From Candidatus Levybacteria bacterium RIFCSPLOWO2_02_FULL_37_18 (lineage in GTDB: Bacteria; Patescibacteriota; Microgenomatia; Levybacterales; UBA12049), in the NCBI GenBank assembly GCA_001784115.1, contig MFPD01000002.1, forward strand, positions 1 through 62,563: a stretch of 62,563 bases of DNA, in the 5' to 3' direction. Every line of letters begins with the position of its first letter. Positions within the stretch are counted from its first letter, which is position 1. Position numbers and translations under genes: made by a program. The notes beneath the pieces were generated by a model. It was not told the DNA's origin, did not search any database, and saw nothing but the letters and a program-made list of their open reading frames with translations. Shown here in pieces: positions 92 through 43,654 of this stretch.

Positions 92-120
92 TTGACACGG
101 AAAGAATTATTTAGTAATAT
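92..120 (+). promoter_or_regulatory. sigma70-type promoter of the his leader
   Basis: TTGACA (92-97), 17 nt spacer, TAATAT (115-120), just upstream of the T-box leader. Confidence 0.6.
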
Positions 121-320
121 ACTATAAGATTAAAAGAAAAAGCGTCATGAGTGGAGTCACGATCCACGATCAGAAATGAACGTTGAGAGCCAAAATACTC
201 TACGGAAGTCAACCGTAAAATTCAACAGACGATGTCACCGCGAGGTAGAGTCGCCACCAAGAGGTTCAAGAAGCAATTTTTGAACAAAAAGGATGGGACC
301 GCGGGAGGTCCTTTTTTGTT

Positions 321-448
321 ACCTCTCGTTCCTTACACATTTCTGTCATTGCGAGGTCGCCTGAGGTGACCGAAGCAATCTCACAAGATTACTTCGTCGC
401 TTCGCTCCTCGTAATGACGGTAAATAGTAACGAACGGGAGGTTTTTTG
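321..448 (+). terminator. T-box intrinsic terminator with enlarged loop
   Basis: ACCTCTCGTTC (321-331) pairs with GAACGGGAGGT (432-442, one G-U pair), followed by a T run; mutually exclusive with the antiterminator. Confidence 0.75.
345..418. repeat. GTCAT...ATGAC palindromic element
   Basis: GTCATTGCGAGG..GAAGCAATC..GATTACTTCG..CTCGTAATGAC; same family as 6868-6966 and 31965-32053. Confidence 0.85.
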
Positions 449-462
449 TTGAGCGAAGAAGG

Positions 463-1347
463 ATGTATATGGCTAATTTAAACAAAAACAGTATAAAACT
501 TGCAATACAAAAAGAGGGACGTTTAACAAATGAAACGCTGGATTTTTTGCGTAAATCCGGCCTGGAATTTGAGAGCTACAAACAAAAGCTCTTTGTCAGC
601 GCGCGCAATTTTCCTTTGGAAATTTTGTATGTCAGAGATGATGATATACCGGATTATGTCGAAAGCGGAGTTGTAGATCTGGGAATTTTAGGACAAAATA
701 TTTTAAATGAAGAACGGCCGAAAGTAAAAAAACTGCTTAATTTACGCTTCGGATTTTGCTCACTGGTAATTGCAGTTCCGAAAGAATCAAACATTACAAA
801 CGTCAAAGATTTAAAAAATAAAAAAATTGCAACTACGTATCCTTCTTCAACAAAATACTTTTTTAAAAAACAAAATATTCCCGTAGAAATTGTGACAATT
901 AGCGGATCTGTAGAAATTACTCCTTTCTTGGGAATTGCAGATGCAATCGTTGACATGACATCAACAGGATCCACTCTTGCTTTAAATGATTTACGATTTT
1001 TGGAAAAACTATATGACTCCGAAGCGGTCTTAATTGCTAACCAAAATGCAACAGCTAGTGTGTATCAAAAAAATCTTATTGGAAAACTCATCATTCGCTT
1101 TAAAGGAGTCTTGTCAGCAAAAAACTATAAATATGTTCTGATGAACGCTCCGGAAGATGTGTTACCGAAGCTCAAAAAAATCACTCCTGGTCTAAAATCT
1201 CCGACAATTTCTCCTCTAACAAAAGAAGGCTGGGTCTCTGTTGGGACAGTAATTAAAGAAGAAGTTTTCTGGGAAACAGTTGAAAAATTAAAAGATCTTG
1301 GAGCAACAGGGATTATTGTTTTACCAATAGAAAAAATGATTACCTAA
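463..1347 (+). CDS. hisG: ATP phosphoribosyltransferase, long form
   Basis: LAIQKEGRL, VRDDDIP, GSVE, DAIVD motifs plus C-terminal regulatory domain; start may be 469. Confidence 0.95.
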   Translation: MYMANLNKNSIKLAIQKEGRLTNETLDFLRKSGLEFESYKQKLFVSARNFPLEILYVRDDDIPDYVESGVVDLGILGQNILNEERPKVKKLLNLRFGFCSLVIAVPKESNITNVKDLKNKKIATTYPSSTKYFFKKQNIPVEIVTISGSVEITPFLGIADAIVDMTSTGSTLALNDLRFLEKLYDSEAVLIANQNATASVYQKNLIGKLIIRFKGVLSAKNYKYVLMNAPEDVLPKLKKITPGLKSPTISPLTKEGWVSVGTVIKEEVFWETVEKLKDLGATGIIVLPIEKMIT

Positions 1348-2697: not shown

Positions 2698-2760
2698 ATT
2701 CTAATTTAGATTATTCGAATTTTGGTATTGTTTCGAATTTCGATATTTGATATTCGAGTT
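2664..2760. repeat. 7-mer-periodic imperfect hairpin element
   Basis: AAATTCG AAATCCG AAGCACG AAATCCG ... TTTCGAA TTTCGAT ATTTGAT ATTCGAG. Confidence 0.75.
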
Positions 2761-2778
2761 TACGAAATATGCATACTT

Positions 2779-4050
2779 ATGAACTTAATAGATATCCAGA
2801 AATTAGCAAAAACAGATAAAAAAAGCGCAGAAGAAAAACTGCTTGTATTAACTCGGGAAATTTTTCCACAGCTTTCCATTCAGAAAATTTTAATAGATCA
2901 AAAATCATACTCACTTAATTCTGTTTTTGGTTTTATTACTATTGAGAGAAAAGAATACTTTTTTAAATTCCACAGCGAAGAAGGTGAGGAAAAAACCCTT
3001 AAAGAATATTACAACTCAGAGCTTTTATCAAAAAATGGCTTCCCTACTCTATTGCCTGTTTATAAATCAACAAAACCGGGAAAGCAATTTTTAATCTATA
3101 AAAAAATTTCTGACCCAAATGTTTTTGACGTATTAGATAGATTAGAAAAAACATATCTTAAAAATAAAACCTATGATCAAAAACTCAAAACAAAACTAAT
3201 AAAAACAGAAGAATCATTTGATAAACAAATAATCAAAAAATCTTTGCAAACATTAAAAACAGTTCCAGCGAAAAAAGTTGCAAAAGAAGAAATCAATCAG
3301 CTTTTCTATAACAGATTGGTTTCAGATATTACTACTCCCCGACTTGATTTGTTTTATAAAAACAAGAGCATGGGGCTTCCAAATGGAACAATACTTTCTT
3401 TTGAGGATTTGAAAAGATTACATTGGAATATAGATGGTGTATTATATAAAAAAACTATAGATGAACTTATTATAGAAGCAAAACGTCTTCTTAATCCCCT
3501 ACGGCTTACAAGATATCCTGTTATTACCGGTCATGGTGATGACCACAACGGAAATAAATTTTTCACAAAAAAAGGCTTTGTGTATTTTGATCATGCATTT
3601 GCCGGAGAAAATCAATATGCTCTTTTAACATTTATAAAGACAACATTTCACGATTGCCTGGCACATCCCCTATGGCTTTATGATCCAAAAGATTTTAATA
3701 TTGAGTTGTATAATACAATTAAAAAAAATGTGATTGAAATTGAAACAAATTTTAATTGGATTTCATGGGCTCCAGTTAGGGAAGAATTATTATGGATAAA
3801 AATAAAACAACTCTGGGTTCCGTTAATTAAAAAATTAAAATCGAAAAATCTGTTAGAAAAAGAGTGGGAAATATTCATAAGAAGCGCTCTTTTTACCTGT
3901 CCGTTTCTTGTATATAATCTTATTGATGAAAAAAGAATTTCTCCTCTGCATTCATTGTTTGCATTATCACAATGTGTGGTTGTCGGATCAAAATCAAAAA
4001 ACGGACCAATGGAAAAATATTTTGAGTATATGAAAGAGATGCTGAACTAA
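2779..4050 (+). CDS. APH/choline-kinase-like phosphotransferase-fold protein
   Basis: YFFKF Lys strand, HGDDHNGN Brenner-like motif, FDHAFAG Mg-binding motif; start moved to ATG 2779 because the upstream part of the ORF is repeat. Confidence 0.65.
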   Translation: MNLIDIQKLAKTDKKSAEEKLLVLTREIFPQLSIQKILIDQKSYSLNSVFGFITIERKEYFFKFHSEEGEEKTLKEYYNSELLSKNGFPTLLPVYKSTKPGKQFLIYKKISDPNVFDVLDRLEKTYLKNKTYDQKLKTKLIKTEESFDKQIIKKSLQTLKTVPAKKVAKEEINQLFYNRLVSDITTPRLDLFYKNKSMGLPNGTILSFEDLKRLHWNIDGVLYKKTIDELIIEAKRLLNPLRLTRYPVITGHGDDHNGNKFFTKKGFVYFDHAFAGENQYALLTFIKTTFHDCLAHPLWLYDPKDFNIELYNTIKKNVIEIETNFNWISWAPVREELLWIKIKQLWVPLIKKLKSKNLLEKEWEIFIRSALFTCPFLVYNLIDEKRISPLHSLFALSQCVVVGSKSKNGPMEKYFEYMKEMLN

Positions 4051-6528: not shown

Positions 6529-6858
6529 ATGAATGTTGACTTTAAAAAAGGAAAAGGACTTATTCCGGCAGTAATCCAAGAATACGGTTCGGATAAAATT
6601 TTAATGCTCGGATTTATGAACGAAGAGGCTTTTAAAAAAACAAAAGAAACAGGCTTTGTGCATTTTTATTCCAGAACAAGAAAAAAACTCTGGAAAAAAG
6701 GAGAAGAATCCGGAAACACCTTAGAGGTTGAAGAAATGTATGCAGACTGCGATAATGATTCAATTCTCATTAAGGCAGTTTTGCATGGAGATGCCTGCTG
6801 TCATACAGGCGAAAAGAGTTGCTTTTTCACAAAGATGTATGATCAAAAGTTATCCTAA
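6529..6858 (+). CDS. hisI: phosphoribosyl-AMP cyclohydrolase
   Basis: YSRTR..LWKKGEESG, DCDND, CHTGEKSCF. Confidence 0.95.
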   Translation: MNVDFKKGKGLIPAVIQEYGSDKILMLGFMNEEAFKKTKETGFVHFYSRTRKKLWKKGEESGNTLEVEEMYADCDNDSILIKAVLHGDACCHTGEKSCFFTKMYDQKLS

Positions 6859-6867
6859 ACATCCGTC

Positions 6868-6966
6868 GTCATTGCGAGTATAGCGAAGCCAGGTACCATA
6901 CGGTACTTGGCGAAGCAATCTATTTTGCTTATGAGATTGCTTCGTCATTACATTCCTCGCAATGAC
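6868..6966. repeat. GTCAT...ATGAC palindromic element
   Basis: GTCATTGCGAG..CGAAGCAATC..GAGATTGCTTCG..CTCGCAATGAC with an inner hairpin. Confidence 0.85.
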
Positions 6967-6978
6967 AAATTTATAACT

Positions 6979-7254
6979 ATGACTACAGAAGAACTCTACC
7001 AAATTATTCTTAATAGAAAACAAAACCCAAAAGAAGGTTCGTATGTATCTTCATTGTTTAAACTTGGAATGGACAGAATTTCTCAAAAAGTAGGAGAAGA
7101 AGCAGTTGAAGTAGTCGTTGCATCGGCTCAAGAAACCAAACAAAGAGTTATCGAAGAAACAGCTGACCTTTGGTTTCATACTCTTGTATTATTAGCCCAA
7201 CTAAACATAGAGCCCAAAGAAATTTTTGAAGAACTCGAAAAAAGACATAAATGA
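6979..7254 (+). CDS. hisE: phosphoribosyl-ATP pyrophosphohydrolase
   Basis: GSYVSSL, QKVGEEAVE, ETADLWFH. Confidence 0.95.
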   Translation: MTTEELYQIILNRKQNPKEGSYVSSLFKLGMDRISQKVGEEAVEVVVASAQETKQRVIEETADLWFHTLVLLAQLNIEPKEIFEELEKRHK

Positions 7255-31920: not shown

Positions 31921-32125
31921 CTAATCAACTAATCTACAAGTTTCGCAGTTCAACTCATCCAGATGTCATTGCGAGGAATGGTGAACGAAGTCGAGCCAAA
32001 CGAAGCAATCCCAAAAAGAGATTGCCACGCTTCCTCTGGTCACTCGCAATGACAGAGAACGCGAAACTCGTGTAATTATCCAATTATTAGTTGATTTGTT
32101 GATTTGATATTTGTTGATTCGTTAA
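31921..32125. repeat. nested repeat: GTCAT element (31965-32053) inside a CAAT/ATTG hairpin
   Basis: Outer CAACTAATC / ATTAGTTG arms, AGTTTCGC/GCGAAACT stem, inner GTCATTGCGAG..CTCGCAATGAC. Confidence 0.75.
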
Positions 32126-43291: not shown

Positions 43292-43566
43292 AAAAAAACC
43301 CTTGCAAACCACCAAGCCATTATGTGACTTAGAAATTTACAAGGGCGAAATTCTGAATTCTAGATTCTCGCTGTACCACCTTGCTTTTATTCTCTTTTCT
43401 ATAAAAAATGCTCGCCTTCGCGAGCACAATCAACAAAAGAGAACCTCTTTCTTGACGTGCTCTATTTTTTCAAACGATTCACGCTACTGTCTTTTACGGT
43501 TTCGTCTCCGTACTACTCATCGTAGTCTGCAACTCGTTTGGCGGGAAACCAAACTAATAACGCTTT
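43292..43566 (-). ncRNA. T-box riboswitch, Pro-specific, ultrashort Stem I, transcriptional
   Basis: Minus strand: AAGCGTTATTA-GTTTGG-TTTCCCG-CCAAAC-GA (CCC at 43545-43543); TACGG..ACCGTAAAA; CAAGG-TGGTACA-GCGAGA..TTTCGC-CCTTG antiterminator; terminator CCCTTGTAAA/TTTGCAAGGG plus T7; upstream of ocd-proS. Confidence 0.88.
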
Positions 43567-43654
43567 ATTATTCTAATATAGCATACAAACATTTCTCTAA
43601 TACTACATATAACACGCAGCAGTCTGTCTACAATTGGTATTGCCATATGTAGGA

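Follow-up and report, generated by a model that had tools for sequence, protein, structure and literature searches.

Class III ileS T-boxes of Actinobacteria were reportedly described by Sherwood in 2015, as later papers cite that work. In the four-class scheme, Stem I of this class is short and has no platform, the specifier sits in an apical loop of 5–6 nucleotides (nt) and Stem II is required; regulation in classes III and IV is mostly translational (PMC10482949). All ultrashort T-boxes are stated to regulate ileS (Henkin-group preprint, bioRxiv 10.1101/2023.02.28.530422), and the class II model of TBDB was built only from Actinobacteria. Our literature search found no paper linking T-boxes with Patescibacteria, the candidate phyla radiation (CPR) or Saccharibacteria. 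Here we describe a leader RNA at positions 138–448 (forward strand) of a 62,563-nt stretch of DNA, the window, from the groundwater bacterium Candidatus Levybacteria bacterium RIFCSPLOWO2_02_FULL_37_18 (contig MFPD01000002.1), where it forms the promoter-proximal T-box leader of the his operon (hisG...hisS). We consider it likely to be a functional, tRNA-His-sensing transcriptional T-box with its specifier in an apical loop, its mechanism being drawn from homology. A first-pass annotation of the window had named translational actinobacterial ileS leaders as the only known T-boxes with apical specifiers, in agreement with the literature searched.

The leader shares with the class III ileS T-boxes of Nocardia farcinica and Mycobacterium a short Stem I without the double T-loop platform, a codon in the apical loop, a basal kink-turn (K-turn), elements of the IIA/B type and a UGGN bulge for reading the tRNA 3′ end. 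It also resembles class I leaders (B. subtilis tyrS type, RF00230), which likewise combine a K-turn and a IIA/F-box element with a purine-flanked Stem III, a T-box sequence with its 7-nt bulge, antiterminator and terminator structures that exclude each other, and a U-run; class I leaders typically regulate operons of amino-acid biosynthesis, among them his, as this leader does. Unlike class I, the leader lacks about 60 of the ~100 Stem I nucleotides, comprising the specifier internal loop with its S-turn, the AG bulge and the distal platform, and it also lacks the Stem II S-turn. The double T-loop platform with which classes I and II contact the tRNA elbow has no counterpart in the window Stem I, which extends over 141–184 only. 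Class II glyQS leaders are likewise streamlined and transcriptional, and they pause before the decision, hairpins followed by U-runs occurring at comparable places in the present family; glyQS, however, keeps a long Stem I and the elbow contact, lacks Stem II and IIA/B, and is Gly-specific. Judged from its sequence, the leader combines an aptamer like that of class III with the expression platform of class I, and misses defining features of both classes.

All of the elements claimed by the first-pass annotation (antiterminator, Stem III, terminator, IIA/F-box hairpin and miniature Stem I) are present in the sequence at the places given for them (Table 1). To these we add a mini-hairpin at 170–179 with the helix closing Stem I, the hairpins at 186–201 and 228–255, the repeat in the terminator loop and the element at 296–317. 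With relaxed filters, RF00230 aligns to 138–336 from its first to its last model position (35.3 bits, E = 3e-6), and 82 interior Stem I positions are reduced to 23 nt, which is the Stem I miss that had been predicted for Rfam. At the gathering threshold, Rfam gives no match anywhere in the window, and the RF00230 cut-off of 93 bits is reached by none of 20 related loci. Standard annotation thus misses these leaders, and riboswitch censuses of these phyla are therefore biased low. The minimum free energy (MFE) fold of the whole leader has a z-score of −6.7 against shuffles.

Table 1 Coordinates of the his leader, its surroundings and related features (window positions unless a relative is named)
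Feature	Position	Strand	Basis
Sigma-70-type promoter: TTGACA 92–97, 17-nt spacer, TAATAT 115–120	92–120	+	Consensus scan, 10/12 matches
Ultrashort Stem I	141–184	+	Sequence, MFE fold, Rfam K-turn alignment
Apical specifier loop GUCACGA (7 nt); His codon CAC 158–160	156–162	+	Covaries with bulge base, tRNA discriminator and downstream genes
Small Stem II-like hairpin, 4 base pairs (bp), AGAG/CUCU, A-rich loop CCAAAAUA	186–201	+	Compensatory change in 4/5 pairs
Stem IIA, ACGG 202–205 / CCGU 213–216, loop AAGUCAA, F-box-like CCGUAAAA (UACGG-AAGUCAA-CCGUAAAA)	201–220	+	Pattern scan
Extra hairpin: lower stem, internal loop UGU(C)/(A)GAG, upper stem, GCGA tetraloop 240–243	228–255	+	Covarying lower stems in relatives
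Stem III 264–285, 9 bp, GCAA loop; flanking purines AAGAG 259–263 and AA 286–287	259–287	+	Fold −8.3 kcal/mol, Rfam alignment
T-box discriminator/antiterminator	289–334	+	Sequence, Rfam alignment
Terminator-like mini-hairpin GGACC-GCGGGA-GGUCC, then U6	296–317	+	Terminator scan; predicted −9.3 kcal/mol
Intrinsic terminator, basal stem 321–336 / 427–442, then U6 442–447	321–447	+	Inverted repeat 321–356 / 407–442; predicted −65 kcal/mol
Palindromic repeat in terminator loop, ends UGUCAUUGCGAGG ... CCUCGUAAUGACG	337–426	+	Further window copies found
Shine-Dalgarno AAGGA 459–463 and hisG, start 469 or 463	459–1347	+	NCBIfam/Pfam matches
Pro leader of the same build	about 43292–43567	−	RF00230 23.2 bits; same 5′ signature
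tRNA genes near related leaders	L009 9927–10001; L064 257–332 (−); L063 3452–3523 (−); L020 1849–1920; L027 1454–1609; L048 626–701; L082 1807–1879 (−)		

The second copy that the annotation had noted, with Pro identity, proves to be real and sits ahead of ornithine cyclodeaminase and proS. Its hairpin (43554–43549 / 43541–43536) carries the loop UUUCCCG with CCC at 43545–43543, Stem IIA and the F-box occupy 43511–43493, the bulge is UGGUACA (UGGU 43378–43375), and a terminator followed by U7 runs to 43292. Because two copies in the window are insufficient to identify the specifier, relatives were collected. A first strict pattern over GTDB genomes gave six matches, three of them by chance and three real: one His leader, from a chromosome of Saccharibacteria (L003), and two Pro leaders (L005, L006). 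HisG homologues with 70–80% identity occur widely among genomes named Gottesman-, Davies- and Levybacteria and Saccharimonadales, and one of them led to a nearly identical His leader in Gottesmanbacteria (L009). A metagenome pattern was then built from four examples, with AAGCGU and the IIA/F-box element fixed and the hairpin left free; its scan returned 83 loci, about 75 of them real leaders. Together, the 83 metagenome and three GTDB loci yield a set of 67 distinct leaders. The hosts of this family, to go by the names attached to the homologues, appear to be CPR/Patescibacteria, in contrast to the actinobacterial hosts of class III.

Across this set the codon in the apical loop changes together with the bulge. 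The loop GU-CAC-GA goes with UGGG in all 19 His leaders, U-CCY-R with UGGU in Pro leaders (17), U/A-UGG-R with UGGC in Trp leaders (15), GU-CGC-G(A) with UGGU in Arg leaders (8), and GU-UGC-GA with UGGA in all four Cys leaders. A covariance model search of the collected loci revealed no specificity beyond His, Pro, Trp, Arg and Cys. Among tRNA genes adjoining related leaders, position 73 is C in tRNA-His(GUG), which also has an encoded G-1, A in tRNA-Pro and tRNA-Arg, and G in tRNA-Trp, in agreement with the suggested match between the UGGG bulge and C73 of tRNA-His. The first downstream gene follows the codon as well: HisG in at least six loci behind His leaders; ProB-type kinases (7), ornithine cyclodeaminase (3) and ProRS behind Pro leaders; ArgG and ArgH-type lyases behind Arg leaders; CysK/CBS-type pyridoxal-phosphate enzymes behind Cys leaders; and TrpRS and TrpB behind Trp leaders. 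Loop codon, bulge base, tRNA discriminator and downstream gene specificity therefore covary over five amino acids, as had been expected of a true specifier. Known class III members regulate ileS through tRNA-Ile and are mostly translational, whereas the leaders collected here serve His, Pro, Trp, Arg or Cys, often stand before biosynthetic operons, and mostly carry a terminator (the window leader and 52 of 59 relatives). Comparison of sequences thus establishes the architecture, the specifier identity and the competing antiterminator and terminator folds, and places the leader in a large family.

The specifier hairpin itself is conserved as a structure. Nine arm pairs occur in the His leaders (GUGGA/UCCAC, GCGGA/UCCGC, CCGGA/UCCGG, CUGAA/UUCAG, GCGAA/UUCGC, UAGGA/UCCUA, GUUCC/GGAAC, GCUCC/GGAGC and CUGGA/UCCAG), and all are complementary. 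Because MAFFT across the five specificities split the hairpin arms among different columns, pairs were counted separately on the His/Arg/Cys subset (17 leaders) and on a model-fitted alignment of 67, alongside an own-versus-cross test anchored on the codon. In the MAFFT alignment of the 17 leaders, 99% of cells are paired and seven pairs have changed on both sides; pairing reaches 100% in the base helix and 98.8% in the apical helix, where three of the five pairs are compensatory. The covariation score for these leaders is 0.394 against 0.131 in shuffles, none of 500 shuffles scores as high, and a one-column shift of the partners makes the score collapse. The alignment of 67 distinct leaders shows compensatory change in all five apical pairs and in four of the five pairs of the next hairpin, although it was fitted to the model and so favours the structure.

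A conventional T-box, with a long Stem I and the true specifier elsewhere, would make the CAC in the loop a coincidence, and the leader does contain other CAC triplets, at 236–238 and 255–257. These are not conserved, whereas the codon in the loop differs among the five groups according to their amino acid. Room for a long Stem I was looked for and is not there: the −10 element ends at 120, leaving only about 15 nt between promoter and Stem I, and only 62 nt lie between AAAGCG and Stem IIA. The relatives are alike in this respect, a TTGACA-N16-18-TAnnnT promoter ending 7–27 nt before AAGCGU in 47 of the 67. Transcription of the window leader should start ~10–15 nt ahead of Stem I; the transcript would begin at the foot of the specifier hairpin, and no long Stem I is therefore hidden upstream. 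Promoter spacing and loop-codon covariation thus contradict the conventional reading, to which we give practically no credence.

Stem I starts with AAGCGU (141–146; AAAGCGU with the preceding A), and its base helix pairs 141–145 with the closing strand ACGUU at 180–184. Above this helix, a K-turn-like internal loop places CAU-GA (146–150) opposite GA (168–169), followed by the 5-bp specifier hairpin (GUGGA 151–155 / UCCAC 163–167). The loop, with U before the CAC and a purine after it, resembles a mirror image of an anticodon loop. Its 7 nt, and the 5–11 nt found across the family, compare with 5–6 nt in class III. A mini-hairpin, UCA-GAAA-UGA (170–179), is inserted on the 3′ strand of Stem I after GA 168–169, and hairpin insertions occur at the same site in five relatives (L064, L069, L073, L045 and L014).

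Where class III requires a long Stem II with an S-turn, this family has a hairpin of 4–5 bp. No S-turn is recognisable in the window hairpin at 186–201, and the Rfam Stem II S-turn positions are deleted in the RF00230 alignment. For the adjoining Stem IIA and F-box, the pattern ACGG-N6-9-CCGUAAA matches the window only at its two leaders against 0.03 matches expected by chance. GAC at 228–230 is the candidate IIB partner of the IIA loop for a pseudoknot. Complementarity of at least 4 bp between the IIA loop and downstream sequence is found in 20 of 56 leaders, compared with 10% of mismatched pairings, and an own-versus-cross test of the pseudoknot gives a modest signal (3.07 vs 2.52). After the pseudoknot, the motif N4-UGU-stem-loop-stem-GAG-N4′ appears in all five specificities; this hairpin distinguishes the family from class III, is absent from the Rfam consensus and is treated by RF00230 as a 30-nt insertion. 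Its lower stems covary (CGAG/CUCG, AGUG/CACU, CUGA/UCAG, CAUA/UAUG and others). The strands GAU and AGUC of this hairpin resemble the S-turn strands GAA and AGUA that are missing at the Stem II position, from which we infer that the hairpin might be S-turn-like.

The 3′ half of the leader contains two mutually exclusive structures. In the antiterminator, A1 pairs 289–293 with 330–334 (5 bp) and A2 pairs 301–309 with 321–329 (9 bp) below the loop CCUUUUUUGUU (310–320); the T-box sequence AGGAUGGGACCGCG (290–303) includes the 7-nt bulge UGGGACC (294–300), of which UGGG should have the ACCC-3′ end of tRNA-His as its partner. Strand 321–336 can pair either with 289–309 in the antiterminator or with 427–442 in the terminator, before U6; the basal stem of the terminator takes up the whole antiterminator 3′ strand, with 321–334 common to both. 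A hairpin with a run of at least five U, starting within or just after the antiterminator, is present in 52 of the 59 non-redundant complete leaders, and the transcriptional platform put forward by the annotation is thus predicted both here and in most relatives.

Translational control as in class III/IV ileS T-boxes, alone or in a dual arrangement, would have the switch hide the ribosome-binding site. Such an arrangement is suggested by five Saccharibacteria-type His leaders of the family (L003, L017, L025, L026, L051), in which UCCUUAG pairs with CUAAGGAG at the Shine-Dalgarno sequence and no terminator U-run follows, and in the window by an 8-nt perfect complement between 400–407 (CUUCGCUC, in the inserted repeat) and 451–458 (GAGCGAAG, just 5′ of the hisG Shine-Dalgarno sequence). 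However, the window switching strand 321–336 pairs with 427–442 ahead of U6, the Shine-Dalgarno sequence at 459–463 lies downstream of the U-run and outside the switch, and segment 400–407 belongs to the inserted repeat and does not occur in relatives. We regard translational control of the window operon as very improbable. The 8-nt complement could affect translation of the readthrough transcript, or could be due to chance. The Saccharibacteria-type leaders (L003 3687–3960, L017, L025, L026, L051 and L086) have the same aptamer with a 9-nt loop, AGUCACGCC, and retain a U-run in the antiterminator loop, so in that lineage the same aptamer seems to be joined to a translational platform.

The mini-hairpin at 296–317 shares nucleotides with the T-box bulge and sits inside the antiterminator; its sequence, GGACC-N6-GGUCC, includes half of the UGGG bulge. 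It is a candidate pause site or early checkpoint, and attenuation could involve two checkpoints, with the first or decisive one at this hairpin and its U6 and the downstream terminator acting second. Without a tRNA 3′ end on UGGG, the mini-hairpin would form and polymerase would pause or terminate. Such a scheme is compatible with the tRNA-His-sensing transcriptional T-box proposed above, and we consider it rather unlikely. It draws on the flagging of the hairpin in the terminator scan and on the family: of the 19 His leaders, 18 keep the loop start C(C/U) with U5-8, among them the Saccharibacteria-type ones without a downstream terminator (a run of at least five U begins the antiterminator loop in the same 18 of 19, translational ones included). 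An analogous GC-rich Stem III hairpin with U5-7 stands just before the T-box, 22–30 nt ahead of it, in 18/18 Trp and 7/17 Pro leaders. On the other hand, the stem has only 5 bp, three of which are already fixed by A2 and the T-box sequence, so that its conservation is only partly independent; and in L021 (a TrpRS gene) the Stem III hairpin and U-run lead straight into an essential gene, which argues for leaky pauses rather than stops. Programmed pauses are kinetic checkpoints in the glyQS T-box (bioRxiv 10.64898/2026.03.06.710129), and we therefore think, by analogy, that the hairpin and U-run elements of the His antiterminator loop and the Trp/Pro Stem III may be programmed pauses giving a slow-binding aptamer more time, with early termination as the alternative.

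In L021 (about 6750–7017, reverse strand), L022 (3799–3990), L041, L070, L078 and L088 (377–520), a Trp or Pro specifier hairpin, the IIA/F-box and the UGU/GAG hairpin are found without a UGGN T-box. A hairpin and U-run stand right before the gene in these loci (a TrpRS fusion, an Asp/Glu racemase or a tRNA-binding-domain protein). Such leaders may be switches that have been truncated, or they may represent another mode of control.

Several observations weigh against a functional transcriptional T-box in the window. According to a review, fast tRNA capture by transcriptional T-boxes generally depends on the long Stem I platform; none of the RNA sequencing runs searched contains the locus; the model-fitted alignment noted above leans towards the structure; the mini-hairpin with its U6 could terminate transcripts before the point that the model predicts; complementarity for the IIA/B pseudoknot amounts to 3 bp here compared with 4–5 bp in many relatives; and the 90-nt mobile palindrome in the terminator loop could mean that this copy is impaired. 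The last two, together with the extra insertion on the Stem I 3′ strand, would fit a decaying or disabled riboswitch that leaves the his operon constitutively on or off. Nonetheless, no core pairing is broken: the specifier hairpin, A1 and A2 are complete, as is the basal terminator stem with its U6. The insert, being a hairpin in its own right, only lengthens the terminator, and relatives carry inserts at the same sites, in the terminator (L019, L029, L069, L076) and in Stem I (L064, L069, L073). Since, in addition, the operon contains the essential hisS, we rate a disabled copy as improbable.

The palindromic repeat has three copies in the window (337–426, about 6868–6967 and about 31964–32056), with family ends TGTCATTGCGAGG ... 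CCTCGCAATGACA and the core CGAAGCAATCTC, and in the leader it lengthens the terminator hairpin only. Relative L009 has the same basal stem without the insert, as a plain 20-bp terminator, and the repeat is absent from the terminators of L009, L020, L063 and L073. Similar inserts with GTCATT ends occur in the terminator loops of the His leaders L019 and L076.

For the window leader as a tRNA-His-sensing transcriptional T-box, a mechanism can be proposed in which tRNA binding, the sensing of its charging, and termination are inferred. Transcription would begin just past the promoter, and the apical loop would present CAC (158–160) to the GUG anticodon as a loop–loop pairing. The part of Stem I that would grip the tRNA elbow is absent; the small hairpin, Stem IIA/F-box and UGU/GAG hairpin probably help to hold the anticodon arm. 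If tRNA-His is uncharged, its 3′ ACCC would pair with UGGG (294–297) and stabilise the antiterminator (289–334), allowing readthrough into hisG...hisS. If it is charged or absent, 321–336 would pair with 427–442, and the hairpin and U6 would end the transcript before hisG.

More tentatively, the family may constitute a fifth T-box architectural class, in which the transcriptional decision is made without elbow contact, two features compensate for its loss, and tRNA genes come under control of their own T-box. The first compensation would be the UGU/GAG module and the U-codon-purine loop, with codon–anticodon pairing extended to 4–5 bp. The second would be the hairpin and U-tract just before or inside the discriminator, which would hold or abort polymerase until the tRNA 3′ end is captured; in His leaders this checkpoint element would be built from the UGGG bulge itself. 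On sequence evidence, the window leader and no fewer than 67 distinct relatives contradict the published statements that transcriptional switches need a long Stem I platform and that apical specifiers are translational, confined to ileS and to Actinobacteria. As a natural minimal aptamer of ~120 nt, available for five or more amino acids, the family makes it testable how much of a T-box a kinetic co-transcriptional decision needs. It also suggests that ultra-small CPR-type bacteria regulate their few retained biosynthetic operons with tRNA-sensing RNAs.

In several relatives, the stretch separating the T-box terminator from the regulated genes contains tRNA genes of matching amino-acid identity (tRNA-His in four cases, tRNA-Arg(UCU) with tRNA-Arg(UCG), tRNA-Pro(UGG) and tRNA-Trp). 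The encoded CCA end of tRNA-His in L009 overlaps the hisG ATG, and the tRNA-Trp gene of L082 comes directly after the T-box motif. The family may in this way place tRNA genes under their own T-box, which would then control the gene of its own tRNA ligand. No tRNA gene was found in the window.

Some genes behind the leaders are unexpected. Behind Trp leaders they are Asp/Glu racemases (L022, L023, L040) and a PvcA-like enzyme (DIT1_PvcA, L044); behind His leaders they are peptidase M20 (L017) and peptidase M15 (L049, L051). CsaA-like tRNA-binding proteins (tRNA_bind) follow Pro leaders in L043, L046 and L092, and SLOG (L069) and GNAT (L031, L039) genes are also among those regulated. The L005 contig comes from a metagenome-assembled genome labelled uncultured Gammaproteobacteria and that of L006 from one labelled Candidatus Acidiferrales; the L006 cyclodeaminase is 73% identical to that of the window, and its contig has a GC content of about 41%. 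Mis-binning of these two contigs would explain the labels; alternatively, the family may extend beyond CPR.

The window operon runs in the order hisG-hisD-ORF442-hisH-hisA-hisF-hisI-hisE-hisS to 8490 (NCBIfam and Pfam matches), and the database copy of HisG has 292 amino acids. Between hisD and hisH, an open reading frame (ORF) of 442 amino acids (2722–4050, forward strand) has no Pfam or NCBIfam match. It occupies the position at which relatives carry hisC (an aminotransferase fused to a phosphatase) and hisB (imidazoleglycerol-phosphate dehydratase), and no recognisable hisC or hisB is found in the window his operon. Three of the four loci with hisG homologues (L007, L008 and L010) show no T-box. 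In these, a 105-amino-acid TrpR-family gene (PF01371) lies directly upstream of hisG (L007 9529–9846, L008 9615–9932 and L010 206–523), which points to regulation by a protein repressor in CPR-type his operons that lack the T-box.

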